A stretch of 58,329 nt of DNA from an uncultured Bdellovibrionales bacterium (GCA_964654585.1 CAZZJR010000004.1:13157-71485); one strand, 5' to 3'; positions 7 through 29,474 are shown, counted from the stretch's first letter. Translations and numbers: made by a program. Notes: generated from the letters alone by a model not told the origin.

Positions 7-867
7 ATGCGTCGTTCGTTGCTGGCTCTCTTGTTCGTGGCTGGAATCTCCCTGTCGGGATGCGGTGACTCGTCCGTTGCAGACGGGCTCGCGCAGCGTG
101 ATGCGAACGAGATCGTTGCCGCGCTGCGAGCGAGGGGTATCGAAGCCAGCACCGAGAAGGAGCGTGGCGCGAAGGGGCGCTACACGGTGTCAGTGTCCTC
201 TGACCGGTTCGGTGAGGCAGCGGCGGCTCTTACAGAGCTTGGTCTGCCTGCGGAGCAGAAGCTCTCCTTCGGTGAGCTCGTTGCGCCATCCGGAATCCTT
301 CCCAGTTCGCGAGAGGTAGAAGCACTGCGCCTCGACCGGGCTGCGGCGGCAGAAATTGAGGCGCTGCTATCACAGCATCCCGGCGTCGCCTCGGCTGGAG
401 TAATCGTGCGGATGCGGGCTACTCAGTCGGGTGAGTCTCCGGCCGTGTCAGTGGTTGTTCAGAAACGGGCTGGAGATGCGCTCGATGAGGCGGCCGTGCG
501 AGAGATGGTGGTGAGGGCCGTGCCAGGGATTCATCCAGAGGGGATCGTCCTCGTGATCGCTGAGCAGCGCCCTCCGCCTGTGGTCGCCGATAGCTCTGGA
601 GCTTCGCTGGTTCCGTTTCTCGTATTCTGGAGAGTTCCGCAAGATGACTACGGCGGGCTCTCCTTGCTGCTCTTGGGTCTTCTTGTCGGCATCACAGCAT
701 TGGCTGGCTTGGCAGGCTACATCTACGGGCAGTACAACCTGAGTCGGCACACCGACGTGCTGCGGGCAGATGGGCTCGACGGCGGCCGGGTAGTGCCGAC
801 GATCGCCGCCCCACTCAAGAGGGATATCGGCGAGGACGCAGGCGAAAGTGGAGATGAAGGGGCATGA
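7..867 (+). CDS. sctJ: T3SS inner-membrane ring lipoprotein (SctJ/YscJ/EscJ family), 286 aa
   Basis: Signal peptide with lipobox LSGC; YscJ-type N-terminus (GLAQRDANEIVAALRARGI, LTELGLP); ring motif EIEALLSQHPGVASAGV; one C-terminal TM helix; much shorter than flagellar FliF. ATG at 7 preferred over TTG at 4. Confidence 0.9.
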   Translation: MRRSLLALLFVAGISLSGCGDSSVADGLAQRDANEIVAALRARGIEASTEKERGAKGRYTVSVSSDRFGEAAAALTELGLPAEQKLSFGELVAPSGILPSSREVEALRLDRAAAAEIEALLSQHPGVASAGVIVRMRATQSGESPAVSVVVQKRAGDALDEAAVREMVVRAVPGIHPEGIVLVIAEQRPPPVVADSSGASLVPFLVFWRVPQDDYGGLSLLLLGLLVGITALAGLAGYIYGQYNLSRHTDVLRADGLDGGRVVPTIAAPLKRDIGEDAGESGDEGA

Positions 868-1088
868 GCGCAGACGGCAAGCAGCGGTTATCGCTGCATG
901 AACAGGCTCTCGTAGCGGTAGCGGTGCTGGTGGACGGCGCCGAAGCTGCGAATGTGCTGGCGCTCGACGCGCGCCGCGGAGACGTGCTGAAGGCTGAAGC
1001 GGCGAGCTGGAGCGAGATCGAGCTCGATGCCAGACTTCCGTTCGTTGGGACGCAGCTCCGCCGAGCGCTTGAGAGAGAGGGGGCTTAA
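864..1088 (+). CDS. Small hypothetical protein of the T3SS-like operon (74 aa, SctK position)
   Basis: ATGA overlap with the sctJ stop; helical amphipathic composition; fills the gap to the next coupled ORF. Confidence 0.7.
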   Translation: MSADGKQRLSLHEQALVAVAVLVDGAEAANVLALDARRGDVLKAEAASWSEIELDARLPFVGTQLRRALEREGA

Positions 1089-1092
1089 GGAT

Positions 1093-1449
1093 GTGGACGG
1101 CGACCGAGAACAGCTCGAAGAGTACCGTGGGCAGGTGCTGGGTGAGGTTGATCGGCGGGCAGATCGGGTTAAGCGGATCGATTCTGAGATCGCAGCGGCT
1201 GATTTTCGCCTTGAGAACCTGGCAGCACAGCGTAGCGCCATCGGTGGCGAAACAGGCAGGCTGCTGGCGCAGGTTGCGTATCGGGCTAAGGTCAAGCGCG
1301 ACCGGGCGAGGCTTCAGGAGCAGCGCGCTGAGGCGGCTGATGACCTGCGGAGCGCTATTGAGCGGCTTGAGCAGGTTGACTCTCAGATCGCGCGGCTCGG
1401 AGACGTGGCCGACGGTACCCAAGTTTCAGGCGAGGAGCAGGTGGAGTAA
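1093..1449 (+). CDS. Coiled-coil protein, SctO/FliJ-like stalk candidate (118 aa)
   Basis: GTG at 1093 after AAGGA; R/E/A/L-rich heptad pattern; directly upstream of sctQ, where sctO usually lies. Confidence 0.65.
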   Translation: MDGDREQLEEYRGQVLGEVDRRADRVKRIDSEIAAADFRLENLAAQRSAIGGETGRLLAQVAYRAKVKRDRARLQEQRAEAADDLRSAIERLEQVDSQIARLGDVADGTQVSGEEQVE

Positions 1450-2487
1450 GTGAGCACTCAGGGAATTCCGCAGAGCGGGGAGGGGAATGACGTTCAGGTC
1501 TGGGACCCACAACGCACCTGCCGCCGAGTCACGCGCGCGGAAGCGCTGCTCTCCCGAGGCTTCCTACGCTGCCGCCCGGAACGTTGGTTCCCGGGGCTAG
1601 CGGGTCAGTGGACCCCCGTCATGCATGCCTTTGGGTGCGAGGTGTCGGTCACGGATATTCGTCCGGCGTTGAATCGGGCACCAGTCGGGGGACACTCGTT
1701 CCTAGCGTCAGTTGCGGGGGAGCCACTTGTGCTCACGGTCGACCCTGATGGCGCGGAGGAGCTGGCGGGAGAGATTGTGCCCGGGGCTGAGTCGGCAGCC
1801 GCTGGAGTCGTGCTTGAGTACATGATGCGCCGGCTCTTCTTTACGCTCGTAACGTCGTGGACGGGACCTGAAACGGTGGGTGCATCTTTCGAGGGAGCTG
1901 CTGGTAGCTCCGCACCGCAGAGTTTGGCGAGTGTTCGGCTCGGAGTTTCGGTCAACACCACCCCCTTCACCGTTTGGTTTGGTCTCGGTCCGAAGATGGT
2001 TGAGACTCTCGACGGATTGTGGCGCAGGCAGGTGCAGTCGACGGCGGCGCGAGCTGCAACGGGCTCGGTGCAGGCGCGCGTTGAGGTGGCGCAGCTTGGT
2101 GTGCCTCCTCAGATGCTCTCGGAGTATCTCAAGGCAGGAACCGTGATCGATCTTGAGGTGCGGGCTTCCGATACGCTCACAGTGCGGGTCGGCGGCAAAG
2201 CTTGGATGCCGGGCAGGATGGTCAACGTTGACGGATTCTTTGGCTGTGAAGTGGCTCCGGGAGCGATCGCCGCGCCGGCAGTCCCTGAGGGAACGACCCG
2301 GCTCTCAGTTGAGCTCGGTAGTGTTGCGCTGGAAGGGCCCCAACTAGCGGAGTTCGGGCAGGCGGGAGCGGTTTTGCTCACCCAAACACCGGTCAGCGAA
2401 AATGTTTCGCTTGTTATTAACCAAGAGGTGGTTGGCAAGGCGAGGCTGTGCGTCTACGAGGGGCGCTTCGCCATCGAGGTGCTGTAG
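1450..2487 (+). CDS. sctQ: SctQ/FliM-FliN-like C-ring (sorting platform) protein with C-terminal SpoA domains, 345 aa
   Basis: SpoA-like segments (YLKAGTVIDL...VRVGGK; RLSVELGSVAL...VSLVINQEVVGKARLCVYEGRFAIEVL); GTG immediately follows the upstream stop. Confidence 0.8.
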   Translation: MSTQGIPQSGEGNDVQVWDPQRTCRRVTRAEALLSRGFLRCRPERWFPGLAGQWTPVMHAFGCEVSVTDIRPALNRAPVGGHSFLASVAGEPLVLTVDPDGAEELAGEIVPGAESAAAGVVLEYMMRRLFFTLVTSWTGPETVGASFEGAAGSSAPQSLASVRLGVSVNTTPFTVWFGLGPKMVETLDGLWRRQVQSTAARAATGSVQARVEVAQLGVPPQMLSEYLKAGTVIDLEVRASDTLTVRVGGKAWMPGRMVNVDGFFGCEVAPGAIAAPAVPEGTTRLSVELGSVALEGPQLAEFGQAGAVLLTQTPVSENVSLVINQEVVGKARLCVYEGRFAIEVL

Positions 2488-2702
2488 GCCCTCCGCCGTA
2501 ACCTGTCGACGGCTCGACGCTTTCAGGTTGGATTGCCCTACCCGTCAGTACCTACAAGGTCCATTTCCTGCCCCGCTATCGATAGCAAGCTGCCCCTGTA
2601 ACGAGCGCCTCGACCCTTGCCGTGCTGTGTGGTAGCTAATCGTGAGTCGACGGGTGCCCCGATGGTCCCCCGGCAATCTTGTAGGTCAATTCAGGAGGTC
2701 GA

Positions 2703-3434
2703 ATGTTCCCTTTTTCAACCACCCTTCGCGGAAGCTGTGCACGCAAACTCATCGCGCTTTCTCTATCGCTTGTCGCTCTCTCTGCTGTCGGCTGTAAGGC
2801 CGGTCCTGCCCCAGATGCGGGCTTCATTCAGAATCCGGAAGTTTTGCGCCAAGACGACAAGCTCCCATTCGACGCAGTTTGGTTCAAGGAGGGGGTAGAC
2901 TTCTCAAAATTTCAGACGGTCTACATCGCTCCGGTTGACACAACGCACCTGCTCAATCTCGATTGGTGGGATAAGGCGAATATCGCTCCCGGCGACCAGC
3001 AATCCCAGGCCGAGGAGCTAGGAGAGTACTTCCGGAATAAAGTTAAAGGTCAGTTCGCCGACGACGACAAGAATAAGCATACGGTGGTCGATACACCGGG
3101 CGATGACACGCTTATTGTAGAGCTTGCTATCGTGGAGGTCGTGCCTACCAAGGTTTGGCTCAACGCCATCGGCTACATCCTTGCTGGACAGCTCGATAAC
3201 GGCTTAACCGCATTCGAGGGCCGTTTCCGTGACGGCAAAACCAAAGAGGTCATCGCAGAGTTCAAGGACCGTGAGTACGGTCAAATCGATATCGTTAGCC
3301 TAGCGGACTTTCAGTGGAACAGGCACTCGCGCCACACCGTAGAAGTGTGGGGAGATCAGCTTGAAGAGGTTGTTTATGTTCAGCCAGGCGCGGCGATCTC
3401 TAGCATGTCATCTGTTACCCTGCGGCCCTGGTAA
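2703..3434 (+). CDS. DUF3313-family lipoprotein
   Basis: RBS GGAGG; lipobox-like AVGC; DUF3313-like motifs (GVDFSKFQTVYIAPV, LIVELAIVEV, EGRFRDGKTKEVIAEFKD). Confidence 0.7.
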   Translation: MFPFSTTLRGSCARKLIALSLSLVALSAVGCKAGPAPDAGFIQNPEVLRQDDKLPFDAVWFKEGVDFSKFQTVYIAPVDTTHLLNLDWWDKANIAPGDQQSQAEELGEYFRNKVKGQFADDDKNKHTVVDTPGDDTLIVELAIVEVVPTKVWLNAIGYILAGQLDNGLTAFEGRFRDGKTKEVIAEFKDREYGQIDIVSLADFQWNRHSRHTVEVWGDQLEEVVYVQPGAAISSMSSVTLRPW

Positions 3435-3486
3435 CTAAGAATTTTGCCGCTAGCAGCCTCGGCTTTCCTGGGGCTATGCTCCGGGG

Positions 3487-4065
3487 ATGGACAGCTCTTT
3501 TTTCGGGGCACTTGTAGCCCTGCTGCTCTTTAGCCAATTCGTCAAGTTCGCGACGGTCCTTTCTGTGTTTCGCTACGGGGCAGGGCTGGTCGGTTTTGAG
3601 CTTGGGGTGGTGACGCTTGTCGCTGCGCTTGGGCTCGCTTTTGCGACGCTCCCGAAAGAAGTCAGGGAGTCTGGTGCCGCGGTTGCGATCGTGTCGGGTG
3701 CCCCGGCGGATACTGTGGCGTTGCGCACCTCGCTTGTGCCGACGATGGCAGCGAGCCTCGACCCGCAGATTGTGAAGGGGCTTTACGGAGCAGATACTTC
3801 TCTCACGCCAGAGTCGCTCAAGAGCGATCTGGGCCGCTTGCTGCCTGCATACACCCTCTCGCAGCTTAAGTCGGCGCTCGTCCTCGGCGTCATGCTGCTT
3901 ATTCCGTTTGTTCTCCTGGACCTCGTTGTTGTGCATGTGCTCTCGCTGCTCGGTATTCAGCAGATCGGAGCGCAGGTTGTCTCGCTGCCTCTCAAGCTCC
4001 TCCTGTTCCTCGCTATCGATGGTTGGGGGCTGCTGGGTGCCAAGCTTCTCGCTGGAGGTGCTTAG
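3487..4065 (+). CDS. sctR: Divergent T3SS export-gate protein SctR/FliP family, 192 aa
   Basis: FliP/YscR signatures FVKFATVLSVFR and LIPFVLLDLVV...VSLPLKLLLFLAIDGWGLL. Confidence 0.88.
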   Translation: MDSSFFGALVALLLFSQFVKFATVLSVFRYGAGLVGFELGVVTLVAALGLAFATLPKEVRESGAAVAIVSGAPADTVALRTSLVPTMAASLDPQIVKGLYGADTSLTPESLKSDLGRLLPAYTLSQLKSALVLGVMLLIPFVLLDLVVVHVLSLLGIQQIGAQVVSLPLKLLLFLAIDGWGLLGAKLLAGGA

Positions 4066-4307
4066 TGCATCAAGAGATTTCGAGTCTCTGGCAGCAGGGC
4101 ACCAAGGTGCTGGTCGTGGTGCTAGTGCCGACGCTTCTTATTCCTGCAGTTGGCCTTCTGTCAGGGTTGCTCCAGGGTATGATGGGAGTGCGTGAAGATG
4201 GCCTCCAGTATGCGCTGCGCGCGCTTGCGCTGGCTGGGGTGGTCCTCGTTTTTGGGGCATCTTTCGCGAGTGCGTTTGCCGAGCTGATGCAGATGGCGCT
4301 GAGGTAG
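4065..4307 (+). CDS. sctS: Divergent T3SS export-gate protein SctS/FliQ family, 80 aa
   Basis: GTG overlaps the sctR TAG; two TM helices; GLLSGLLQ...REDGLQYALRALAL aligns with the GLLxxLxQ...QEQTLxFxxKLL pattern; size and position fit. Confidence 0.78.
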   Translation: MHQEISSLWQQGTKVLVVVLVPTLLIPAVGLLSGLLQGMMGVREDGLQYALRALALAGVVLVFGASFASAFAELMQMALR

Positions 4308-4308
4308 G

Positions 4309-4857
4309 ATGCTTGCCGCGCTCCTTCCCGTCTTCGGACCCGTTCTCCTGATGAGCATCGCTCTCAGCCTTTCGTTCGTGGTGGCTGGCTCGCCGCAGTC
4401 AGCGTTCTCTGGCGCGTTTGCCATCATGCTCCCGGCCGTCGCAGCCGCAGCTTCCCTGAGCATGCTCTACCGATGGTGCTTTCCTAATGCGGACACCCGA
4501 CCGGCTGGGCTGGCGGCCGCGCTGGTTACGCTCCTCATGCTCTTCTCGTCTAGGGATTACCTGTCGCTCTTTTCGTCTTCGGCTTGGCTGGGAGCTGATT
4601 CGGCTAATCTGCTGATTGCAGCGCGCGAGCTTGCGCTTGTGTGGGGGCTTTCCTTAATTTCGGTGATGGCTGTCGTGTTGGTGTTAGAGCTGCCCCTGCG
4701 CTTCATCTTTGCGGGCTGGAGTGGGCCCGGTCAGGAATCGACCCTGCGCAGCGCCCGGTGTGTGGCTTCATGCGCAATAGTAGGCGCCGCCTGGGTCCTG
4801 CTCGAGGAGAGCGCTGTGGAGAGGCTGTTGCACCTTAAGCAGCTCCTGGTGCGGTAG
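4309..4857 (+). CDS. sctT: Polytopic membrane protein, probable shortened SctT/FliR, 182 aa
   Basis: Very hydrophobic and coupled between sctS and sctU; sequence similarity by eye is weak, so the call is mainly syntenic. Confidence 0.55.
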   Translation: MLAALLPVFGPVLLMSIALSLSFVVAGSPQSAFSGAFAIMLPAVAAAASLSMLYRWCFPNADTRPAGLAAALVTLLMLFSSRDYLSLFSSSAWLGADSANLLIAARELALVWGLSLISVMAVVLVLELPLRFIFAGWSGPGQESTLRSARCVASCAIVGAAWVLLEESAVERLLHLKQLLVR

Positions 4858-4860
4858 GGT

Positions 4861-5442
4861 ATGGCTGAGAGCGCATTCGCCGGAAAAGAGGAGCTGCAGG
4901 AGCTTAAGGCAAGAGGGGTAGTATTTAGCTCGCCGCTAGCTACTCGGTCCGTCGTCCTGGCAGCGCTGCTTGGCTCAAGTGTAGCCGGTTGGGAATGGGT
5001 TACATCGGCGCCAGCGCCGGAGACGCTGCCGGCGATGATTGAACTGGCGCGAAGAGTAGGGCTCGCGGCAGTCGTGCTGTGCGCAGTTACCGTTGCGGCA
5101 ACGCTTGTCGTTACTTTGGCCTTCAACGGCTTCACGCTATCCGCAGGTTTTCTCTCACTCAAGATTCGCCCCGTGCGGCGAGAGAGCGTGTGTATAACCC
5201 TGGCGAGTGGGGTGCTTGGCGCCTCGGTGGGCTCTTTGCTCGCCTACGCATTCGCGGGCGAGCTGTTCCTGTTGCTCAGGACCACTGACGCAGCTTCTCT
5301 GGGAGCTAGCCTTGGCCGGCTGGCCTTGAGGCTTGCCAAAGTAGTTGCCCTTGGAGCGGTTGGGGTGGCGGTGATAGTGACACCGGTCACCAGGGCGCGT
5401 TTTCTCTGGCTTCACCGGTCCCGGAAGGGTGTGCGCGAGTAG
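4861..5442 (+). CDS. sctU: SctU/FlhB-like protein, transmembrane domain only, 193 aa
   Basis: N-terminus KEELQELKARGVVFSSPLAT resembles FlhB/YscU KxxxAReeGqvaxSxel; four hydrophobic segments; ends at the post-TM4 helix (TRARFLWLHRSRKGVRE); no NPTH domain; tandem TAGTAG stop. Confidence 0.68.
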   Translation: MAESAFAGKEELQELKARGVVFSSPLATRSVVLAALLGSSVAGWEWVTSAPAPETLPAMIELARRVGLAAVVLCAVTVAATLVVTLAFNGFTLSAGFLSLKIRPVRRESVCITLASGVLGASVGSLLAYAFAGELFLLLRTTDAASLGASLGRLALRLAKVVALGAVGVAVIVTPVTRARFLWLHRSRKGVRE

Positions 5443-5542
5443 TAGTGCAATTTGCAGCAAGGTGCTAGAAAGACCGAGTGAGGGCGGTCATTGGGGCCCA
5501 AAAAGGCGCGCGCTCTCGGATCAATTTTTTCGCCTCGCAGCT

Positions 5543-5791
5543 ATGTCCACAACCATCGGGAGTCCCCCGGATCCATTTTCCCTGTCGCCTCTGCTCTCGC
5601 TCCTGCCATCGTGCGGCTCGGTTTCGCGCCTCGAAGGGATGGTATCTTCTCTCTTTGCCCGTCAAGAGAAGGTGCTGCAGCTCCGCGAGCAGGGCGGTAG
5701 TAAGGAGATTGAGCGTCGTCTTGCCTGTGAGGAGGCGATGCTGCGGCAAGTTCTCGATTGGCTCTCGGCCAAGAGCGGAGGGGGTGAGTAA
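5543..5791 (+). CDS. Small hypothetical protein, 82 aa
   Basis: ATG at 5543; stop overlaps the next start (TAATG); helical C-terminal half. Confidence 0.6.
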   Translation: MSTTIGSPPDPFSLSPLLSLLPSCGSVSRLEGMVSSLFARQEKVLQLREQGGSKEIERRLACEEAMLRQVLDWLSAKSGGGE

Positions 5792-6225
5792 TGGACCTTC
5801 CTTCGCGCAAGCCAACGGATCTCCCGCGGCGTAGTTACTCAAGAGAAGAAGTAGTCGATTTGTACGAGCTTGGAAAACTGTGGCTCGAGACCGGCCAACA
5901 CAAGCGTGCCGAAGACATTATGTCTGGCCTTAACGAGGTTGCGCCGGATTTTGCTCCAGCCTGGCTCGGGACCGCCTTTCTGCGTGGAACACAGCTCGAC
6001 TACGAGGGAGTGGTCGCCGCGGCCACGTCAGCCCTGCGCCTTGAGCCCGACTGCGTTGAGGCGATGCTTTTTGTGGTTATCTCCGCTCTCGCTCTCAAAG
6101 ACTCGAGTATGGCCGGCACCTACCTTGGTGAAGTCGGTGACCGGATCGAGCAGGGGCAGGTCTCTAATCCGAACGTAACCCGGCTGTACAAGATGCAGCT
6201 CGCCCGTTACCAAAACCGTGAGTAG
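5791..6225 (+). CDS. TPR protein, SycD/LcrH (class II T3SS chaperone)-like, 144 aa
   Basis: TPR pattern (LYELGKLWLETGQHKRAEDIM, APDFAPAWLG, ALRLEPDCVEA); size and context match class II chaperones. Confidence 0.72.
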   Translation: MDLPSRKPTDLPRRSYSREEVVDLYELGKLWLETGQHKRAEDIMSGLNEVAPDFAPAWLGTAFLRGTQLDYEGVVAAATSALRLEPDCVEAMLFVVISALALKDSSMAGTYLGEVGDRIEQGQVSNPNVTRLYKMQLARYQNRE

Positions 6226-6295
6226 CTGCAGGGGCTGCCGCTGTTTCGGCCCGCTTGCGCGTACATAATCGCGGGGTCATCAGGAATATTTTTTG

Positions 6296-6365
6296 ACAAA
6301 GAGAGCAGCGAGGGCAGCGAGGGGGCAGAGAGGGGCTCTCTCGCTGCCCTCGCTGCTCTCTTTGT
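6296..6365. repeat. Perfect 26-bp inverted repeat (long hairpin) downstream of the T3SS-like operon
   Basis: ACAAAGAGAGCAGCGAGGGCAGCGAG (6296-6321) is the exact reverse complement of 6340-6365; 18-nt spacer can pair further through G-U pairs. Confidence 0.9.
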
Positions 6366-7226: not shown

Positions 7227-7245
7227 CACATACAGGGTAGTTTGC

Positions 7246-8202: not shown

Positions 8203-9561
8203 TCACGACGGCGTTGCAAACGACTCGTCCACATCCACATCAACAATAATTTTTGACTCTACCAGGTAGCGGTAGAGGTGCTGGTTGACGTGTGCTAGCG
8301 AAAGATTGTCAGCGCGCACCATTCCGGCTGCCGGGAAGGAGATGCGGCTGGTGTCGAAGTTCACAAGCTCTAGGTACGAAGAGAAGAGCTTGGATTCTAC
8401 CGGGTACACGAGCAGGTGAACCTGCTGCTGAAAGAGGCGGGCGGAGGCTTCGAGCACTCCGCCACTGAGCAGGGCGTAGCGGTCATCCTCAAGCAGCAGC
8501 GGCAGGAGGGCAGAGCTGACCACAAAGCCGAAGGGCGAGGTCGAGTACCGGCGCAGGTACTGAGTCAGGTGAAAGAACTGCGAGTAGGTGCTAACCAAGA
8601 TATTGTGATGCTGCTTCGAGAGCTGCTCGACGACGTCAAGCACTTCATCATCAGTTGACTGTTGCGTGCGCAAGATGTTGTTGAGCGAGAGCTCAAGAAC
8701 GTAGGCAGCGTCTTTCTCTGCGCCCTCTCCGAAGGACTGGAGCTTGGCATTGCACTGCTGCGCTAGGTCAGGAAACATGTGGTGCAGGGCCCGGAAGGAG
8801 CCGCGCTCAAGCAGGATCGGGCGCTTGTGGAAGAACTCCGTTGGCGGAAGAGGCTGCTGGTCGGAGTCGAACAGGATAGCGTTGGCGAGCCCCTTGCGCA
8901 GCAGCGCGATGGTAACCAGTCGCGGGTCAAGCCCTGCGAAAAGCGGTCCGGAAAGCTCGACGTAGTCAACCTCTACTCTACCCCCAGCAAGGGAGTCGAG
9001 CAGGCTAGGGAGTAGGGCGTTGATGTCGTCGCTGAGGTAGAAGGCTCCGTAGGCGAGGTTGACTCCCAAGACACCTAAAGCTTCTGACTGCCGAACCGAG
9101 TCTTCGTCGGTCATGTTTACGTGCAGGAGTATCTGGCTTGGTTCGGCTTTGGGGCTACCCTGGAAGCGGATCCCCATCCATCCGTGGCTCTCGTTAGTTC
9201 CGGCGAAGTTTCGTGCGGATACCGTGTCGGCGATTGTAAAGAACCCGGTCTCAGCACCGCGTGAGGGTCCAAGCCGTTCGACCAGCAGACTGAACTCGTG
9301 TGAGAGCATCGAGATGAGGCGCTCTTTAGAGACGTAGCGAGAGGCTTTGCCGTAAATACTGTCGCTCACGAGCATGTCGTACGCTGACATAGACTTGGCG
9401 ATCGTGCCGGAGGCAGCACCGACACGGAAGAACCAGCTCGCGATCTCCTGCCCGGCTCCGATCTCTGCGATCGTGCCGTAGCGCTGCTGGTCGAGGTTTA
9501 TGTGGAGCGCCTTGTGGTGCGGGTCAAGTGTGTCTGTGTTTAGCTTCGGAGCTACCGTCAT
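8203..9561 (-). CDS. Conserved cytoplasmic protein of the nucleotidyltransferase-like family often labelled nicotinate-nucleotide adenylyltransferase or (wrongly) TonB-dependent receptor
   Basis: Family motifs KALHINLD...YGTIAEIGAGQE..WFFRVGAASGTIAKSMSAYDM..SD.IYG, FADTV-like TIADTVSARNF, HGWMGIRFQ, ERGSFR. ATG at 9561 chosen. Confidence 0.7.
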   Translation of the reverse strand: MTVAPKLNTDTLDPHHKALHINLDQQRYGTIAEIGAGQEIASWFFRVGAASGTIAKSMSAYDMLVSDSIYGKASRYVSKERLISMLSHEFSLLVERLGPSRGAETGFFTIADTVSARNFAGTNESHGWMGIRFQGSPKAEPSQILLHVNMTDEDSVRQSEALGVLGVNLAYGAFYLSDDINALLPSLLDSLAGGRVEVDYVELSGPLFAGLDPRLVTIALLRKGLANAILFDSDQQPLPPTEFFHKRPILLERGSFRALHHMFPDLAQQCNAKLQSFGEGAEKDAAYVLELSLNNILRTQQSTDDEVLDVVEQLSKQHHNILVSTYSQFFHLTQYLRRYSTSPFGFVVSSALLPLLLEDDRYALLSGGVLEASARLFQQQVHLLVYPVESKLFSSYLELVNFDTSRISFPAAGMVRADNLSLAHVNQHLYRYLVESKIIVDVDVDESFATPS

Positions 9562-9621: not shown

Positions 9622-9963
9622 CTACTTCTTTTTCGGGGGCTCTGCTGACTCAATGAGGGAGGCGTCGATGACCATCTTAACCGCCTGCTCTACGATGGCG
9701 CGCTGGTTCTTTGGAATAACTCCCTGGGCGGCGAGCTTCTCAGCCTCCTCCGAGACGAGGCTCATCAGCTTGTCTCGCTGTTCGAGAGTGATGGACCCAA
9801 GCGCGCCAGCTCCTCCTACCCGTGAAACGCCGGACACGCCTTTGACAGACGTCGCACCTTTGACCTTCTCAACTTCGGATACTGACTCAGTGCCTTTGAC
9901 GCCCTTGGTCGACCCGGAGGAGCCGACTGCACCAACTTTCTTGTCGTCTTTATTTTTGCCCAT
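9622..9963 (-). CDS. Small protein with low-complexity N-terminus; FlgM-like anti-sigma candidate, 113 aa
   Basis: Immediately downstream of the FliA-like sigma gene on the same strand; G/V/K/S-rich N-half and helical C-half. The CDS is well supported; the function is inferred. Confidence 0.6.
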   Translation of the reverse strand: MGKNKDDKKVGAVGSSGSTKGVKGTESVSEVEKVKGATSVKGVSGVSRVGGAGALGSITLEQRDKLMSLVSEEAEKLAAQGVIPKNQRAIVEQAVKMVIDASLIESAEPPKKK

Positions 9964-9991: not shown

Positions 9992-10783
9992 TTATCCTGA
10001 TGCTTTCCGCAACGCGTCGGTGAATGGCCCCTTCGAGCCATCTCCCTTGAGCTTCGCCATGAGGGGCCTGAGACCAGGCCGGATCTTCGGCGTGGGCGCG
10101 GCTTTCCCCTGCGCCATGCTCTTCTGCAGGTACGCAATCAGAACTTTGTGCTCTCGCATCACGTTAAGTCCATCTGTCTCCCACTCGGTGGCGACGGTGC
10201 GCAGTGAGAGACCATCCCAGTACACCTTGTAGAGGAGCCACTGGTGCACCGGCTCAAGAGCCGCCATGACCCCCACCATGCGCCGGTAATCGATTAGGTC
10301 ATCGGGCAGCGGATCGCTCGAGACAGCTTGCCGAGTGGCAACGATGCTGGCTCCAACGAGGAGTTCCCTGACCGCTGCTCTCATGTCTGCGTCTTCGTTT
10401 CCAGAAGACTCTGAAACAGGCAGGCGCCCGTCGCGCATTTCCGGGAAGACTCCGTACAACTCTGCTGAGATCTCTCGTGCCTTAGCCTCTACCGCGGTTT
10501 TGCTCGCTGTGTTGCGGGTCCAGCCCTTAGATTTTCTGGCGGCATCCGTCGATGCCTCGTGAATTCGCTTGCGCGCGTACCCCTTAAATGGAATTCCGCG
10601 GGTAGGGTCGAAGCGGCGCGAACAGAAGATCAGCGCTTCCATCGCGGCGCCATCGAGACCATCCAGTCGCCAATCTAGACTCCATGCTCGCGCCACGCTG
10701 CGGGCGATACTTTCGGCCCAACCGTGGTGCTCTACGACCAGGTTGTTAGCTTCTTCTTCTGTTAGGGTTTTTCTCTCGGCCAC
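9992..10783 (-). CDS. Sigma-70 family RNA polymerase sigma factor, FliA/WhiG-like, 263 aa
   Basis: Region 2 (LVVEHHGWAESIA...RRFDPTRGIPFKGYARKRIHEASTDAARK) and a region-4-like segment (LEPVHQWLLYKVYWDGLSLRTVA). Confidence 0.8.
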   Translation of the reverse strand: MAERKTLTEEEANNLVVEHHGWAESIARSVARAWSLDWRLDGLDGAAMEALIFCSRRFDPTRGIPFKGYARKRIHEASTDAARKSKGWTRNTASKTAVEAKAREISAELYGVFPEMRDGRLPVSESSGNEDADMRAAVRELLVGASIVATRQAVSSDPLPDDLIDYRRMVGVMAALEPVHQWLLYKVYWDGLSLRTVATEWETDGLNVMREHKVLIAYLQKSMAQGKAAPTPKIRPGLRPLMAKLKGDGSKGPFTDALRKASG

Positions 10784-10858: not shown

Positions 10859-10887
10859 CTATCGGCAAGCACTGGCTAAAACCTTTA
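10859..10887 (-). promoter_or_regulatory. Sigma28-like promoter candidate TAAAGGTT-N13-GCCGATAG
   Basis: Near-consensus -35 and -10 elements on the minus strand about 75 nt upstream of the FliA-like gene; spacer 1-2 nt longer than canonical. Confidence 0.45.
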
Positions 10888-11058
10888 GTTGCCAGCAGTC
10901 ACTTACACCCAGGATAGCCCAGAAGCTAGCAGTTCCAAATACTTAACTTTTTCAGAAGCAGTTTTAGCACGGGGATGGATAAGGGGGAGAACGCCGTAGG
11001 AAAGCTAAAAACGCGGCGGAAAGGTTTTGTTTCTACTCAGAAAAACGAGGGCAGCACA

Positions 11059-11940
11059 ATGGGAGTGGCTTCAGTCAGAGAGATTTCGAAGAGAGAGAAG
11101 GCTCGCGCACGTGGTGGTGCTAAGGCAGCTACGCGTTCGTCGAAAGCAAAGCTGCGACTGGTAAAGCCGACGCTGAAGGGTGACGGGTCGCCAACACCGC
11201 TTCAGCAAGAGGCGCTCATCCTGAAATATCGGCTCAAGGCACGCAAACTCGGCCGCAGCATCCTGCGCCGCTGGCACGCCCGCATGGACCTCGACGAGGT
11301 AGACAGCCTAGTCGATCTCTCCCTGTGTGAAGCTGTAAAGCGCTTCAACCCGTCAAAGGGTGCAAGCTTTATGACCTTCCTGTTTTACCACCTAAAAGGC
11401 AACCTCGTTCGTTCGGTCGCCGCGGCGGCCGCTTCGGCATCTCTCCCGTCAAGCCTGCTCGCTGAGGGCGAGGGCACTCCACTCAGTGGAGACCTGATGG
11501 GCGAGCTGAGCCTGCGGGGCCTAAACTCGGCGGAGATCGCCGAGGCAATTTCAAGTCAGGACGCTCCGCAGCCAGATGAGGCGCTGTGGAAGAAGCAGCT
11601 TCACGGCCAGAGCTCACTGGCTTGCGAGAAGCTCGACGCCCTTGAGCAGGAGATCATAAAGCGCATCTTCATCCAGGAGCAGCAGATCATGGATATCGCA
11701 GCTTCCCTCGGATACAGCCGCTGCCACATCTCACGTGTCAAGAAGAAGGCTCTAGAGACGCTGTACGACGAGCTGCGTGGCGCGATGAACCAGGATGACC
11801 TTGGCCAGCGCCCGTCGTTCGACGATGATTCCGATGATGAGGTCGAGCAGCGGATCATGAACCGTAAAGCGATCCACCGCCGCCGGCCGCGCTCTCGCGC
11901 ATCGAAGCAGTCACCATTCGTTCCAGCTCGCGCCGCGTAA
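11059..11940 (+). CDS. Sigma-70 family sigma factor, SigB/F-like, 293 aa
   Basis: Region 2 (SLCEAVKRFNPSKGASFMTFLFYHLKG) and region 4 HTH (LEQEIIKRIFIQEQQIMDIAASLGYSRCHISRVKKKAL); basic N- and C-terminal tails. Start could be 10975. Confidence 0.85.
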   Translation: MGVASVREISKREKARARGGAKAATRSSKAKLRLVKPTLKGDGSPTPLQQEALILKYRLKARKLGRSILRRWHARMDLDEVDSLVDLSLCEAVKRFNPSKGASFMTFLFYHLKGNLVRSVAAAAASASLPSSLLAEGEGTPLSGDLMGELSLRGLNSAEIAEAISSQDAPQPDEALWKKQLHGQSSLACEKLDALEQEIIKRIFIQEQQIMDIAASLGYSRCHISRVKKKALETLYDELRGAMNQDDLGQRPSFDDDSDDEVEQRIMNRKAIHRRRPRSRASKQSPFVPARAA

Positions 11941-13775: not shown

Positions 13776-13994
13776 GGCGGGTCCTCGTTGGTCAGTAACG
13801 CAAAAGGGGGAAGGAACGGCGGAGCAGCGGAAAAGTTAGGAGCCCTTCCCCTCAGAGGATCTTTCGGCACTTTCCCGGTCCAGCATGAGCGCGGAGTCGC
13901 CGCTTGAGGGCGCTCGAAACCGGCAATTTCTGCTCGTTTTGCGAATTTGTGCCGCTAACTAGGCAGGGAGACGGGCTCGGGGTCGGCTGTTTGC

Positions 13995-15425: not shown

Positions 15426-15453
15426 TAAAGCCCGGCGCAAGTTGCGCCGATAG
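15426..15453 (+). promoter_or_regulatory. Sigma28-like promoter TAAAGCCC-N12-GCCGATAG upstream of the subtilase
   Basis: Close match to the TAAAGTTT-N11/12-GCCGATAA consensus, 47 nt upstream of the ATG, correct orientation. Confidence 0.6.
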
Positions 15454-15500: not shown

Positions 15501-17921
15501 ATGTGTCAGGCCCTGTGCAGAGCCGCCCAGCGGGTGCGGCAGACGCTTCTGGTCAGCGCAGCAGCTTTTGCGTGCGGCGTTGACTGGTCCGAGTCTGCAG
15601 CGCAAGAGCTGCGGGTGGTGCCTGGCGAGTACATTGTGACGCTGCCTGCGCGTGCGTCAGGCAAGAGCGTTACAGCTGCCGCTTCGAGCCCAAACTTTTC
15701 ATCCTCGATGGTTGGTGTTGCTGACGTGCTGAACGGCGAGGCCCTAGTCGTGCGGGCTCCCGGTAACGGCGTGATGCGCGCGGCGACAGCTGCTGCAGAT
15801 GGCTCTGTGCCGTACCGAGCCGAGCACGACCTCTGTAAGGCGATCCTTGCCGAGGGGCGAGCCGAGAGCTGCTCCCCCAACTTTGTTGTCCGGGCCCTGG
15901 CTGTTCCCAACGACCCCCAGCTGTCGCAACTGTGGGGTCTGAGCGAAGCGAGCGGAATCAATGCGCCGCGGGCTTGGGACCTCTTCACCGGGTCAAGCTC
16001 GATCGTTGTGGCGGTGATCGACACAGGGATAGACTACAATCACCCGGACCTGGCCGCGAACATGTGGAGAAATCCGGGAGAGATCGCGAGCAACGGGGTT
16101 GACGACGATGGTAACGGATACGTCGACGACCTGTACGGAATTAATGCTCGAACTGGCGCGGCACAGCCTGGAAATCCGCTGGATGACCACTACCACGGGA
16201 CACACGTAGCAGGAACCATCGGCGCTGTGGGCAACAATGGAATAGGCGTCGTGGGGGTCAATCAGCGCGTGAAGATGATGGCGCTCAAGTTCCTCTCGTC
16301 AACTGGCAGCGGCAGCCTATCTGACGCGATCCGGGCGATCGACTACGCTACCATGATGAAGAACGACTACGGGGTGAACGTCCGGGTTTCGAACAATTCG
16401 TGGGGCGGCGGAGGTTACTCGGCCGCATTGGAGAATGCTATCAAACGCGCCCGAAATGCGGGGATCATCTTCGTGGCGGCGGCTGGAAACTCCAGTGTAG
16501 ACACTGACTCAGAACCGAGCTACCCATCAGGATACGATGTGGACAATGTCGTGTCGGTCGCCGCTATCGACAGCTCGCACAACCTTGCGACCTTTTCCAA
16601 TTACGGCGCCACGACGGTTGATATCGCCGCGCCGGGAGTCGATATTCGCAGCACCATGCCGACTTCGCAGTACGGCAAGTTATCGGGTACGTCGATGGCA
16701 ACGCCGCACGTAGCCGGAGCGCTCGCGCTCTTGCTGGGTCGGGAGCCAGGGCTTAGCTACCTCGAGGCTGTAGACCGGTTGTACCTCTCTGGGGTGACCA
16801 GGGCATCCCTGGTCGACATACCCACCGGGGTGTCTCTTGTGCGAACTCAACGAACTCTAAACGTCGCACGGATGCTCTACAACGAAACAGCGCCCCTGCC
16901 GTCCCTGCCCCCGAACCAGGTTCCGTGCGGGTACAGCTTCCAGTCGGCTAACCTGCTTGCGGGCGGCGAAGTGGACACGGCAGCCGATGAGGCCCCGATC
17001 GTCAACCAGACTGATGAAGGGAGCTTCTACCAAATTGACCTGCCGTTCTCCTTCCAGTTCTTCCGGGAGAGCGTCAACAGAATCTGGCTCTCGCCCAACG
17101 GGATCGTCTACACCAAGTCGCCGCTGGGGCTTGATTACGTTGTGAGCGCTAAGGCGCCGAAAAACTCTATCGCGGCGCTGCACACTGACCTCATTCCCCG
17201 AGCGGCGGATCAGGGCGTCAGGGTAGCTGTCTCGGATAACAAGGTAACGGTGATGTGGAGGTCCGAACACTACGGACTCCCGGGTCAGGGGGTCATCACT
17301 GTTCGTTTGACGATACGCGCAGATGGTACCTATTCATCGTCCGCGCACTTCGGTTCGGATGGGCTCAATTACGCTCTCAAGAATCAGGTTCTCGGTAATC
17401 CATTCGAATCGACCCCGACCGACGGCCGCGCGCTGGTCGGAGTGACCGGGGCACTCTCAACGTTCTTCTCGGTTCTTGACCTGGCTGCCACCCAGACCGC
17501 CCTGACTTCATCCTCAAGCGAGGCACTGGCTTTGGGGGCGGGGATGACCACGAGCTGTGCGGTCGCGCCACCGCCCCAGGATGGAGACTCAGAGCCCGTA
17601 ATCACAGGGGTGGTCATCAGCCAAACCGGTGCCGGCCGTTTAAGTGTGCCGGCACAGGTGGCTCTCTACGGGTCGGGGTCGGGTAGTGTCCCGGTGACGT
17701 TCAGGGTTAACTCCCGCACCTGCCGAAGTACGGTGCCGTTCAACCTAAGCGATGGCACTGCACGGGTTAGGTTACGGGTTCCGGCAGGCGTACGGGGGTT
17801 GACCGCGTCCGCCTCGAGTGCGAGCGATTCAATTCGTTTCCGTTGGTCGGCAGGAGCGGGGGCAGGTGCGAGCGACTCAACTCGCTGCGCCAGGCTCCTG
17901 AGGAGTGTTACCCCCTTCTAA
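15501..17921 (+). CDS. Secreted S8 (subtilisin-like) serine protease with C-terminal beta-rich domains, 806 aa
   Basis: Catalytic triad motifs VAVIDTGID, HYHGTHVAGTI, SGTSMATPHVAG; oxyanion AAAGN; prodomain VPGEYIV. Confidence 0.93.
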   Translation: MCQALCRAAQRVRQTLLVSAAAFACGVDWSESAAQELRVVPGEYIVTLPARASGKSVTAAASSPNFSSSMVGVADVLNGEALVVRAPGNGVMRAATAAADGSVPYRAEHDLCKAILAEGRAESCSPNFVVRALAVPNDPQLSQLWGLSEASGINAPRAWDLFTGSSSIVVAVIDTGIDYNHPDLAANMWRNPGEIASNGVDDDGNGYVDDLYGINARTGAAQPGNPLDDHYHGTHVAGTIGAVGNNGIGVVGVNQRVKMMALKFLSSTGSGSLSDAIRAIDYATMMKNDYGVNVRVSNNSWGGGGYSAALENAIKRARNAGIIFVAAAGNSSVDTDSEPSYPSGYDVDNVVSVAAIDSSHNLATFSNYGATTVDIAAPGVDIRSTMPTSQYGKLSGTSMATPHVAGALALLLGREPGLSYLEAVDRLYLSGVTRASLVDIPTGVSLVRTQRTLNVARMLYNETAPLPSLPPNQVPCGYSFQSANLLAGGEVDTAADEAPIVNQTDEGSFYQIDLPFSFQFFRESVNRIWLSPNGIVYTKSPLGLDYVVSAKAPKNSIAALHTDLIPRAADQGVRVAVSDNKVTVMWRSEHYGLPGQGVITVRLTIRADGTYSSSAHFGSDGLNYALKNQVLGNPFESTPTDGRALVGVTGALSTFFSVLDLAATQTALTSSSSEALALGAGMTTSCAVAPPPQDGDSEPVITGVVISQTGAGRLSVPAQVALYGSGSGSVPVTFRVNSRTCRSTVPFNLSDGTARVRLRVPAGVRGLTASASSASDSIRFRWSAGAGAGASDSTRCARLLRSVTPF

Positions 17922-19288: not shown

Positions 19289-19901
19289 CGCGCAACCTTT
19301 CCGGTGCAGAGCAACATCAAATAAGTACTTGCCAACACGTTCGTTGGGTGTCACCATTTTTTCAGTGCTCGGTCTCTCACTGACTGCAGAAAATCTAGCG
19401 GCCCTCATTAAGAGTCGCAGTCGGCAGTGAGTGAGCGACCAAACCAAGGGTGAGCGATGCTTGTCCGGGCAAGGAGCAGGCACCAGCTTCGTGAAGTAGG
19501 ATACGAGGCGGTGATGTTGAAGGAAGGTTGGTCGGTAGCTTGGCGGTGGAGGAAGGTAGTAGTTGTCCCCTCCGGTGCTATCGCGAGCTGCGAGGATCCG
19601 CGGCGAGGTGAGAAAGCTCTTCCCTTGTCTCGAAAAATCTTGCAGCATTCGTAGAGAAGAATTGTCAAGCGATGCATCTTATCTTCCGATAAGGCAAAGC
19701 AGACAGTCCCTCAAGTAATTTGCGCAGTGTCTTCTACACGATTGGAGGTAAGGCGCGAGAGTTGAGGGGATAAAAGTTTCGGGTATACGGCATACTTTTG
19801 GGGAGGGTTTTCCCGGCTCGCGAGAGGTGCTGAGGCTCGATTAACAAACGTAGATAGCGGTTAGAACTAGTTCTTCCGCAATCAACACTGGAGAAAAAAA
19901 A

Positions 19902-19982
19902 ATGGCAACTAAGAAGGCAAAGAAGACCACCAAGAAGGCTGCTAAGAAGAAGACCACTAAGAAGGCTTCAAAGAAGAAGTAA
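19902..19982 (+). CDS. 26-aa Lys/Ala/Thr-rich histone-H1-like microprotein MATKKAKKTTKKAAKKKTTKKASKKK
   Basis: GGAG RBS plus A-rich spacer, ATG at 19902, TAA at 19980-19982, uniform AAG/GCT/ACY codons, own strong terminator. Below the ORF-track size cutoff. Confidence 0.75.
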   Translation: MATKKAKKTTKKAAKKKTTKKASKKK

Positions 19983-20002
19983 GCAGCGCTTTGCGTCTTA
20001 CG

Positions 20003-20045
20003 GCGCCCTCCGACGCTTTCGAGTGTCGGAGGGCGCTTTTTTTTT
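20003..20045 (+). terminator. Intrinsic terminator after the Lys-rich microprotein
   Basis: GCGCCCTCCGAC-gct-TTCG-agt-GTCGGAGGGCGC stem followed by 9 T. Confidence 0.92.
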
Positions 20046-23557: not shown

Positions 23558-23882
23558 CGTTATCTTGGCAGCCGTTCGCCCTGCGGAGAGCGAACAAGAC
23601 GAAATTCCTCAATCTTTACGATGCAATTATCAAGATTTACGGTCCCGAAGAAGACCCGTGCCCAGCGAGATTTGCCGCAAAAAATCGGGTTCCGAAGGGC
23701 GTTGGTACCAACGCCTAAACTGGTCGCAGGGGCTGGGGCGGGCGACTGCATTGTCGTCGCGTCGGAGTCGCAACAGCTGCGAGACTGAGTCGGTGTTCTA
23801 CTTTTTAGCGGGCGTTGCTGCCGAAAATTATACTCATCTGAATTCGTTGACGTATTTCGGAGGGGTAGCTATCGTTCGGCGG

Positions 23883-25166: not shown

Positions 25167-25893
25167 TCGTCGGGAGCGAGCCGGAGTTCGGCTCGGCGTG
25201 GAGCTGCGTAACCTTACCAAGCGCTACCGCGATGCGGATCGCGATTTAACGGTCATTAGTGGCCTCACGTTTTCGTTCCCTGAGCAGGGGACGATTGCGA
25301 TCATTGGGCGATCCGGAATCGGAAAATCGACTCTGATGCACCTGATAGGTGCCCTCGATACGCCATCGGAAGGAGCGGTCCTCTTCGGCGGCCAAGACGT
25401 GAGTGCGATGGGCTCTGATGAGAGGGCAGCCTTCCGTGCGCGGAATGTCGGATTTATTTTTCAATTTCACCACCTTCTCCCTGAGTTCTCTGCCGAGGAG
25501 AACGTTGCGATGCCGCTCATCATGTCAGGCATGCACGAGGGTGAGGCGCGCGCCGAAGCGGCCGCCTTGCTTAGCCGCATGGGGCTTGCGGAGCGCGCTG
25601 CACACCTTCCATCGCAGCTCTCAGGCGGTGAACAGCAGCGTGTTGCGATAGCGCGCGCGCTCATCACGAAGCCGCGCGTGGTGCTGGCAGATGAGCCGAC
25701 TGGGAACTTGGATGTGCGCACCGCTACCGAGGTGCAGAAGCTTCTGCTGGAAATGAACAGAGAGCTAGACAATACGCTGATCGTCGTGACCCACAACGAA
25801 GAGTTAGCACAGAGCATGGACATGGTCGTAGAGATGACGCCGGGTGGAGCGCTCGTTGAGCACCGCAAGGCGAGGCGAGTGCCGGAGGAGTGA
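25159..25893 (+). CDS. lolD: Lipoprotein-releasing ABC transporter ATPase LolD
   Basis: Walker A GRSGIGKST, LolD motif GFIFQFHHLLPEFSA, LSGGEQQRVAIARAL, DEPTGNLD; overlaps lolC. Confidence 0.93.
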   Translation: MTDRRERAGVRLGVELRNLTKRYRDADRDLTVISGLTFSFPEQGTIAIIGRSGIGKSTLMHLIGALDTPSEGAVLFGGQDVSAMGSDERAAFRARNVGFIFQFHHLLPEFSAEENVAMPLIMSGMHEGEARAEAAALLSRMGLAERAAHLPSQLSGGEQQRVAIARALITKPRVVLADEPTGNLDVRTATEVQKLLLEMNRELDNTLIVVTHNEELAQSMDMVVEMTPGGALVEHRKARRVPEE

Positions 25894-28196: not shown

Positions 28197-28199
28197 GCA

Positions 28200-29414
28200 C
28201 TACGCTCGGATCAGGCTCGGATCCTTGGCAATTTTTGCAGCCTCGGCTTCGTCTTCCTCGTGAGCGAGGAATGGGTTTCTGGCGCGGCGACGGAGGAGTG
28301 CGAAGGTGTCGTGGTATCCGACTTCTATCAGCGAGTTGAGGTACTCTGGGTCGAGGGCGACGTACGACATCACCTCGTAGGCGGCCTCCTCTCCTAGCTT
28401 CGCCTTGACCAGCGTAAAGAGGGGCCACAGGGCGCCGCATGCATCCATAAAACGCTTGCGGGAGCTACCGACAGCCTGCTTAAGGTAAACCCCAAGGCTG
28501 CCTGGGTTGCGAATCGTAAGAGTTTCTGGCGGACGGAGACAGAAGGTGTCGTCACCAGCGGGAACCTCCCAGCTTGGGCGCTTGTCGTGAGCCTCGCCGT
28601 ATCTGTCGAGCCACCACGAGCGACCGGAGATATCGATAACGACGATGCGGTGGGCACCGAGTCGAACGGCCGGGTCTACCGGTATGTTCTGTGAGATTCC
28701 GCCGTCTACGAGCCGGACACGACCGCGGTCGGTATCCAGCTCAACCGGGGGAAGTATCGAGGGGAGAGCCGCTGATGCGAAGCCATGACGCGCGCTCAGT
28801 TCGTCGACGTAACACACCTCAAAGGTTGCTCCCGATAGCTCTTCTGGGGTCAGATGGTGGTGGCTGCTCAGAAAGAGCAGCGGCTTCCGTTGGGCACCGT
28901 CCATGGTAGTCATAACCCCAATGGCACGCAGCGACGGAGCTCGTCGTGATGGATTCAGCCCGCCTTGGCTCTGAATGACAGCATTGAGTCGCTCCTCAAG
29001 TGGCGAGGGATCGAGCACAGAGGTCTTAGAGGTAGTTGGGCCGGGGGCTAGGTACTGAGCGGTCGCTATTCTGATAGCGCGCAGGAAGGCACGTGTGCGA
29101 GAGCCGGCGAAGGTGTTTGAGAAGGTTCTCTCGCGCCACAGGTCTTCGAGCACTTCGATGCTCGAACCTATCCCGTTGCGGATGCAGGCTGACAGCACGA
29201 GTCCATTCACTGCACCTATGCTGCTACCGAGCACTATCGAGGTATTGTCTAGGTCTTTTCCGAGAACCTGGGCGAGCGCTTTGAGTGCCCCAGCTTGATA
29301 CGCGGCACGGACTCCCCCTCCAGACAAGACGATTCCGAGGTCACTGCTGTTCGGCTCTAGCGACTTCCGAAATTTAACCGCTTTTTGGTCCTCAGACTGT
29401 GGCCGTCTCCTCAT
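28200..29414 (-). CDS. Patatin-like phospholipase
   Basis: Gly-rich LSGGGVRA, nucleophile GSSIG, ASAALP and catalytic DGG. ATG at 29414 (AAGG RBS) or GTG at 29432. Confidence 0.9.
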   Translation of the reverse strand: MRRRPQSEDQKAVKFRKSLEPNSSDLGIVLSGGGVRAAYQAGALKALAQVLGKDLDNTSIVLGSSIGAVNGLVLSACIRNGIGSSIEVLEDLWRERTFSNTFAGSRTRAFLRAIRIATAQYLAPGPTTSKTSVLDPSPLEERLNAVIQSQGGLNPSRRAPSLRAIGVMTTMDGAQRKPLLFLSSHHHLTPEELSGATFEVCYVDELSARHGFASAALPSILPPVELDTDRGRVRLVDGGISQNIPVDPAVRLGAHRIVVIDISGRSWWLDRYGEAHDKRPSWEVPAGDDTFCLRPPETLTIRNPGSLGVYLKQAVGSSRKRFMDACGALWPLFTLVKAKLGEEAAYEVMSYVALDPEYLNSLIEVGYHDTFALLRRRARNPFLAHEEDEAEAAKIAKDPSLIRA

Positions 29415-29447
29415 AAAAACCTTGAGGTCCACTCGCCCCTAACGGGA

Positions 29448-29474
29448 ATATCGGTCCTCAGCCGAGAACCTTAA
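29448..29474 (-). promoter_or_regulatory. Sigma28-like promoter TTAAGGTT-N11-ACCGATAT upstream of the patatin gene
   Basis: Canonical spacing and near-consensus elements on the minus strand, correctly oriented. Confidence 0.55.

Follow-up and report, generated by a model that had tools for sequence, protein, structure and literature searches.

A 58,329-nucleotide (nt) stretch of DNA from an uncultured Bdellovibrionales bacterium (GCA_964654585.1 CAZZJR010000004.1:13157-71485; the whole of this stretch is called the window below) carries a conserved cassette encoding two diverged, FliA-like sigma factors (sigma263 and sigma321), a 113-amino-acid (aa) protein (p113) and a larger protein (p469), and this cassette is linked to a reduced, non-flagellar gene cluster that resembles type III secretion systems (T3SS). 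The genes are present and their linkage is conserved among related genomes, as are promoter motifs of the sigma-28 type associated with them. The likeliest interpretation appears to be that a secretion-like machine and a set of hydrolases belong to one developmental regulon of attack-phase-like character, both being turned on by a sigma factor derived from FliA; we put the probability of this overall reading at roughly 0.5.

Conserved linkage of the cassette

Loci from related genomes, labelled L001, L003 and so forth, were compared with all window proteins by tblastn, and synteny was counted among those with enough flanking sequence. In a scan of species-representative genomes, p113 was found in 31 metagenome-assembled genomes (MAGs), most of which are labelled Bdellovibrionota and nearly all of which come from freshwater sampling sites. 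The cassette consists of sigma321, divergent from an operon of sigma263, p113 and p469 in that order (Table 1). In each of the 31 related loci whose flanks are long enough, the genes for sigma321, sigma263 and p113 are found side by side, p469 being next in most of them, and T3SS-like genes adjoin the cassette in about 20. A preliminary description of the window had proposed, as a check, co-occurrence of secretion genes, both sigma factors and the 113-aa open reading frame (ORF) across genomes; this holds for the sigma factors and p113 in every such locus, and extends to adjacent T3SS-like genes in about 20 of them as well as in the distant relative L042. There, with p113 only 38% identical, the whole layout recurs (SctD, SctJ, SctQ, SctR, SctS, SctT, a 226-aa SctU, an 88-aa ORF and a TPR protein), p469 is absent, and the p113 and sigma genes overlap by 4 nt. 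A similar intimacy is seen in L041, where a sigma263 homologue (hhalign E = 1e-69, 47% identity) lies directly 5' of p113 and its stop codon abuts the p113 start. The sigma263 protein is 71-89% identical to that of the window in 16 of 17 aligned species, the outlier being L034 at 57%, a conservation exceeding that of RsmG.

Sigma-28-type promoters

The yardstick for promoter recognition is external to the window: 5'-end mapping in Bdellovibrio bacteriovorus yielded the consensus TTAAG-N16-CCGATA, found at 92 of 140 attack-phase promoters and attributed to FliA (PMC3627812). Scanning for this consensus, where CCGATA had to be exact, the spacer could be 15-17 nt long and the -35 box could deviate at one position at most, gave six matches in the window against 0.54 expected, a number reached in none of 300 simulations. 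Four of the six fall within promoter-proper sequence (non-coding, and lying upstream of a same-strand gene at a distance of 300 nt at most), which makes up 5.9% of strand-positions (P = 1.6e-4); they precede the sigma263 operon and the genes for an S8 subtilase, a lysine-rich microprotein and a patatin-like phospholipase. The preliminary description had pointed to sigma-28 motifs before a protease and a phospholipase, and on this count it is borne out. The related pattern TAAA-N14-18-CCGATA occurs twice, before sigma263 and before the subtilase, where 0.17 matches are expected, and the strict E. coli pattern TAAA-N14-16-GCCGATAA has no match in the window; the Bdellovibrio consensus, not that of E. 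coli, is the right yardstick here.

Conservation of these sites is most evident before sigma263 itself, where CCGATA stands in register in 25 of 26 loci, usually as GCCGATA, with a -35 box reading TAAAG, TTAAG, TAATG or CTAAC at a fixed distance from it. Judged from sequence alone, a putative cognate promoter of the TAAA-N15-GCCGATAA type precedes sigma263's own operon, and promoters of the Bdellovibrio FliA attack-phase type are likewise predicted in the window. Both boxes before the subtilase are kept in L005 and L004 despite a diverged spacer, are weaker in L007 and L008, and are absent in L001 and L023. Similar sites are found before the first gene of the T3SS-like operon, which encodes an FHA protein, in L036, L038 and L046.

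In the regulon that we favor, sigma263 would be a FliA derivative that reads sigma-28-type promoters, a proposal towards which we lean on balance. It would autoregulate its own operon, as suggested by the sigma-28-type promoter at the head of that operon, and would also drive the T3SS-like operon (through the promoter seen in relatives), the subtilase, the patatin and the lysine-rich microprotein. The small protein p113 would bind and restrain sigma263, which we advance more tentatively.

A second conserved element lies near the start of sigma321, at 10930-10965 and at the same place in 25 related loci. Read in the orientation of sigma263 it takes the form TGCTTC-N3-AAAA...TAAG/C...TTGG. This differs from the sigma-28 type, and the element may represent either an operator or the promoter of sigma321 itself.

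A reduced T3SS-like cluster

The T3SS-like cluster fills the first 6.2 kb of the window, on the plus strand. Its SctJ-type lipoprotein has an LSGC lipobox and a transmembrane (TM) segment at the C-terminus, and in L036, a 95%-identical relative, two FHA / Yop-YscD-type (SctD-like) genes, at a position upstream of the window, open the operon ahead of SctJ; FHA / Yop-YscD_cpl proteins are also encoded directly upstream of SctJ in L038 and L046. Two marks of an injectisome are accordingly in place, a SctJ lipoprotein and an FHA-type SctD (the latter from relatives) instead of FliF, and a third, the full export gate, is incomplete: SctR is clear, the match of SctS is marginal, only its position speaks for SctT, and SctU is without its switch domain. 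SctR matches the NCBIfam yscR model at 70.6 bits versus 63.7 for fliP, both under their own cut-offs, and the putative SctT has no family match.

The 193-aa SctU has an N-terminus of the FlhB/SctU type and four to five hydrophobic segments, and the autocleaving C-terminal switch domain was not found in this ORF; the window protein itself matches PF01312 with E 3.9 only. Its positional counterpart in L042 is 226 aa long and matches PF01312 positions 2-224 of 335, and because this protein also covers only that part of the family, loss of the switch domain is, on sequence comparison, a trait of the clade. The T3SS-like gate lacking the SctU switch, as the preliminary description had it, therefore stands, with family matches for SctJ, SctQ, SctR and SctS and a SctU consisting of the membrane domain alone. 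The 82-aa ORF and its TPR partner are the members of the cluster kept most widely, being present in nearly all loci. The gene calls of L035 also include a 74-aa ORF, at about 864-1088.

Several observations bear on the evolution and borders of the cluster. In a subclade comprising L003, L038, L039 and L046, the site carries a block of SctD, SctJ, SctQ, the 82-aa ORF and the TPR protein with no SctRSTU, and in the subclade of the window a short, divergent SctRSTU set is inserted there, a distribution which suggests, by comparison of these sequences, that gate genes were duplicated or relocated. Divergent from the first FHA gene is a conserved single-domain response regulator of 121-128 aa (L036 6619-7005, L038 6459-6824, L046 2399-2764), and the intergenic region between the two carries the CCGATA boxes. 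At the other end, the inverted repeat at 6296-6365 is the probable end of the operon. Copies of its left arm (6296-6326), at least 95% identical, turn up in several contigs, unrelated in other respects, from two other metagenome runs, and for this reason the repeat may be a dispersed element of the REP (repetitive extragenic palindrome) kind and not only a terminator.

Alternative explanations

A number of findings weigh against the attack-phase-like regulon, and they are considered here together with the alternatives to which they lend support. The most serious of these supposes a flagellated host, as most cultured Bdellovibrio-like bacteria are. A canonical FliA encoded elsewhere would then read all of the TTAAG-CCGATA promoters, sigma263 and sigma321 would be downstream regulators of other specificity, and a real FlgM together with flagellar export would constitute the checkpoint. 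The divergence of sigma263 gives this some substance: it scores 33.4 bits against the FliA/WhiG family TIGR02479, whose cut-off is 189.6, and its region 4 is undetected by Pfam, so that another, canonical FliA could indeed read the promoters. Its region 2 reaches 21 bits against a Pfam cut-off of 24, and inspection of the alignment shows a helix-turn-helix like that of region 4, with an altered recognition helix. Moreover, the consensus is identical to the motif of B. bacteriovorus FliA, which also drives proteases (PMC3627812). On the other hand, no other sigma family matches sigma263 as well as FliA does: its top NCBIfam match is FliA_WhiG, its top PDB matches are FliA chains (E = 0.04), and hhalign aligns it with E. 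coli FliA over 64 columns of region 2 at 34% identity (probability 21%). Conservation of the promoter is strongest before sigma263's own operon, as is typical where an alternative sigma factor regulates itself, and family scans of the window proteins revealed no flagellar gene within its 58 kb. We regard a canonical FliA as an unlikely, though by no means negligible, reader of these promoters.

The second sigma factor, sigma321, scores 44.6 bits against TIGR02479 (again with a cut-off of 189.6), and shows equally weak similarity to the SigB/F/G and FliA/WhiG families, all under the cut-offs. Both proteins are, as far as profile comparison of their sequences goes, group-3-like and FliA-like by nearest neighbor, and neither is a family member by threshold. 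Of the adjacent FliA-like sigma initially described, there remain two real sigma genes with FliA/WhiG among their best matches; membership of that family, at 33 and 45 bits, does not survive.

A comparable distinction applies to p113. It is a real and strongly conserved gene, with 74 homologues at 56-96% identity, and a full HMMER profile search extends the family to 229 clusters at 50% identity. The AlphaFold2 model gives residues 1-58 a predicted local distance difference test (pLDDT) score of about 50, and helices at 60-79 and 85-105 a score of about 75, forming a predicted helical hairpin over residues 60-105. As modeled, p113 would share the build of FlgM, which is about 100 aa long, disordered in its N-terminal half and helical in the C-terminal one. 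Descent from FlgM is another matter. There is no match of p113 to FlgM (PF04316) or to any other Pfam or NCBIfam family, Pfam being searched up to E = 10, and none to FlgM in Pfam scans of 49 diverse members of the family (0 of 49); aligned with E. coli FlgM by hhalign, p113 scores probabilities of 0.15% and 0.43%, and neither a PDB profile search nor Foldseek returned anything, FlgM included. The homologue search begun from E. coli FlgM retrieved only enterobacterial FlgM at 78% identity or more, and was of no use as a diverse profile. Since family, profile and fold tests are all negative, p113 is not a FlgM homologue, and the sequences and the model together indicate that it is like FlgM in general shape and in its place beside a sigma gene, not in ancestry. 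The FlgM-like ORF of the preliminary description is thus upheld as a conserved gene with a FlgM-like shape, and its FlgM homology is withdrawn. Two peptides of p113 that look like parts of FlgM, SITLEQRDKLMS and VIDASLIESAE, received no support from alignment with hhalign.

Because its gene abuts or overlaps the sigma gene, p113 is most simply viewed as a stoichiometric partner of the sigma factor, and by this sequence context is a likely candidate for an anti-sigma factor. It might instead assist sigma263, as a positive cofactor or as its chaperone, or it might belong to the T3SS-like machine, as a small component of its structure or as a substrate, and simply share the operon. Needle and rod proteins likewise combine a helical hairpin with a disordered N-terminus, p113 is modeled with a helix-turn-helix hairpin in its C-terminal half, and no needle or rod gene was identified in the cluster. 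Faint matches to TyeA, a T3SS gatekeeper partner, occur in 3 of 49 family members, and the conservation of p113 far exceeds what is usual for FlgM proteins. The TyeA matches are below threshold, however, Foldseek finds neither a needle protein nor TyeA, and p113 keeps its place immediately behind the sigma gene, their stop and start codons abutting or overlapping, also in a locus that lacks p469. We judge these other roles for p113 improbable.

An anti-sigma role raises the prospect of secretion-coupled control, which is where the preliminary description had arrived. Export of p113 by the T3SS-like machine would be argued by analogy with known systems, and we think it unlikely. Genes for SctV, the SctN ATPase, the SctC secretin and a needle are missing from the window and, in relatives, from the cluster and the 10 kb around it; with SctV, ATPase and secretin lacking there, export of any protein by this machine is hypothetical. 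If export did occur, machine genes that apparently have the same sigma-28-type promoter would make the circuit one of positive feedback, as with Bordetella BtrA or Pseudomonas ExsE (the ExsE cascade being a secretion-activated positive feedback loop), rather than a late-gene checkpoint of the FlgM type. The scheme in its most ambitious form, in which a needle-less, switch-less machine, triggered by contact or assembly, exports p113 as an unrelated, FlgM-like anti-sigma factor and so frees the FliA-derived sigma to amplify machine genes and to produce secreted hydrolases, patatin as a possible effector and a nucleoid-condensing microprotein, would be an attack switch re-inventing the flagellar checkpoint; taken as a whole we think it unlikely.

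It is very unlikely, finally, that the cassette and T3SS-like genes adjoin merely through inherited gene order without functional coupling and that the motifs before hydrolases arose by chance, for the scan yields many more matches than expected, most of them promoter-proper, linkage is kept at 38% p113 identity, and the same promoter type precedes the T3SS operon in three lineages, against which stand four loci with the cassette but no T3SS genes within 10 kb (L001, L023, L026 and L027), the mostly housekeeping character of the genes at 12-29 kb (rsmG, lolDE, bamA), and the score of the subtilase site, 14.7, under a position weight matrix trained only on sigma263 promoters, which fails to part it from shuffled sequences. 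That matrix was set aside, being over-fitted to TGCCGATA and having missed the patatin site.

Comparison with known systems

The individual principles assembled here are known, from FliA/FlgM, Bdellovibrio FliA, the secreted anti-sigma factor of Bordetella, sigma-28 of Chlamydia and the T3SS* of Myxococcus. In flagellated bacteria such as Salmonella and E. coli, FlgM export couples flagellar assembly to sigma-28 (FliA) activity. The window has in common with these a promoter of the TAAA...GCCGATA type, FliA as the nearest match of the sigma factor, and, next to the genes of a type III export apparatus, a gene for a partner of roughly 100 aa that is disordered in its N-terminal half and helical in the C-terminal one. 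It differs in the score of its sigma factor (33 versus 189.6 bits), in a partner that is no FlgM homologue, in an apparatus that is non-flagellar (SctJ and SctD-like FHA proteins), and in that the machine genes appear under the same promoter, which would make a feedback loop and not a late-gene checkpoint.

Within the same phylum and with the same promoter consensus, FliA of B. bacteriovorus is a global attack-phase sigma factor that also drives proteases (Karunker et al. 2013, PMC3627812), its regulon extending beyond flagellar genes to proteases and small genes. That organism has a canonical FliA and is flagellated, and neither a T3SS-like cluster, a paired sigma factor nor a p113-like partner has been described there. 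The logic proposed here for export is that of Bordetella, in which the anti-sigma factor BtrA (BspR) of the extracytoplasmic function (ECF) sigma factor BtrS is secreted by a non-flagellar T3SS (PMC10732220, PMC6483047), its removal raising expression of the T3SS regulon; the sigma factor is of another class, the anti-sigma factor is unrelated and much larger, and the process has been shown by experiment, whereas here it is inferred. Chlamydia, which is non-flagellated, has a sigma-28 regulon of late genes that includes the histone-like hctB (PMC12282069, PMC10597470). It bears comparison with the window in that a sigma-28 there drives developmental late genes in a bacterium with a non-flagellar T3SS, and sigma-28 control of hctB finds a parallel in the sigma-28-type motif upstream of the lysine-rich, histone-H1-like microprotein; it differs in having a recognizable FliA/WhiG member, no known FlgM-like partner, and another lineage and lifestyle. 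In the predator Myxococcus xanthus, the needleless T3SS* (PMC12075869) is likewise a basal body of T3SS-like kind that is reduced and without a recognizable needle, and it is used together with hydrolytic killing functions. This likeness is one of general description, and neither a sigma cassette nor sigma-28-type promoters have been described there.

In view of the precedents in Bordetella BtrA, B. bacteriovorus FliA and Chlamydia sigma-28, the initial statement that the arrangement is undescribed was too strong. No description of the cassette, of the p113 family or of the reduced machine was found in the papers searched. Dozens of uncultured freshwater Bdellovibrionota species have kept both the cassette and the reduced T3SS-like cluster, and if sigma263 does read sigma-28-type promoters, a FliA descendant would have been re-used, in a lineage of a predator phylum, for a non-flagellar secretion machine and hydrolases, extending the role of FliA as global attack-phase regulator in Bdellovibrio. 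The p113 family of unnamed small proteins may constitute a new class of sigma partner, and if its export were to prove true, the flagellar checkpoint would have been re-invented on a third kind of type III apparatus.

Other features of the window

Table 1. Features of the window, with position, strand and supporting evidence (positions counted from the first nucleotide of the window).
Feature	Position	Strand	Evidence
SctJ-type inner-membrane ring lipoprotein	7..867	+	PF01514 55.2 bits; TIGR02544 88.9 bits, below cut-off 161.95
140-aa coiled-coil protein between SctJ and SctQ	1027..1449	+	gene calls in L035 and L036; kept in relatives
SctQ-like sorting-platform protein (SpoA / FliN C-terminal domains)	1450..2487	+	PF01052 57.4 bits, two stretches; weak TIGR02551 match
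DUF3313 lipoprotein, inserted within cluster	2703..3434	+	PF11769 55.9 bits
SctR/FliP export-gate subunit, short (192 aa), 4 TM segments	3487..4065	+	PF00813 79.5 bits
SctS/FliQ-like export-gate subunit, 80 aa, 2 TM segments	4065..4307	+	PF01313 24.0 bits, cut-off 25; 80-aa call in L036
Probable SctT, 182 aa, at least 4 TM segments	4309..4857	+	position only (between SctS and SctU, as in L042); hydropathy
SctU/FlhB membrane domain, 193 aa	4861..5442	+	N-terminus alignable with L042 226-aa protein
82-aa ORF and coupled 144-aa TPR protein (chaperone-like pair)	5543..6225	+	weak TPR_19 match
Perfect 26-nt inverted repeat after TPR gene	6296..6365	.	read from sequence
p469, last gene of sigma operon, 452 aa from likely start, clade-restricted	8203..9561	-	66-83% identity across 16 species
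p113, 113-aa partner protein, candidate anti-sigma	9622..9963	-	real, strongly conserved gene
sigma263, strongly diverged sigma-70-family factor	9992..10783	-	best similarity to FliA
Predicted promoter of sigma263-p113-p469 operon	10860..10887, site 10865	-	TAAAG-N17-CCGATA
sigma321, divergent second sigma, group-3 type, basic N-extension	10975..11940	+	Sigma70_r4 28.2 bits, r2 16.7 bits
Predicted promoter before subtilase	15426..15452, site 15447	+	TAAAG-N16-CCGATA, 49 nt before ATG
S8 subtilase, 806 aa, signal-peptide-like N-terminus	15501..17921	+	PF00082 192.7 bits
Motif before lysine-rich microprotein gene	19665..19691, site 19686	+	TCAAG-N16-CCGATA, about 210 nt upstream
Microprotein, 26 aa, 14 Lys (MATKKAKKTTKKAAKKKTTKKASKKK)	19903-19983	+	GGAG ribosome-binding site, strong terminator
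Consensus match inside a gene	22032	+	scan
Patatin-like phospholipase, 404 aa from ATG at 29414	28200..29414	-	PF01734 86.3 bits
Predicted promoter before patatin gene	29449..29474, site 29454	-	TTAAG-N15-CCGATA, both boxes perfect
Consensus match inside a gene	40096	+	scan

The region from 12 to 29.5 kb is mostly housekeeping, with rsmG, an Fe-S protein gene, lolDE and bamA, and also encodes hydrolases, namely a Peptidase_MA protein, the S8 subtilase, an M29 aminopeptidase, a reprolysin-like metallopeptidase and the patatin; beyond 29.5 kb the window is housekeeping. No signal peptide was seen at the N-terminus of the patatin, and it is pure speculation that this protein might leave the cell by a route other than Sec, such as the T3SS-like machine. 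The last protein of the sigma operon, p469, has no family match and none in Pfam or PDB; its AlphaFold2 model has a pLDDT of 55, with an N-terminal domain that is marginally CinA-like. Rfam and tRNA scans of the window gave no match.

The microprotein, its upstream motif and its terminator together span 19665-20045 of the window. Between the divergent Peptidase_MA and Fe-S genes lie weak -10-like boxes, CCGAAA at 13869 on the minus strand and CCGCTA at 13950 on the plus strand, with scores within the range of shuffled sequences.

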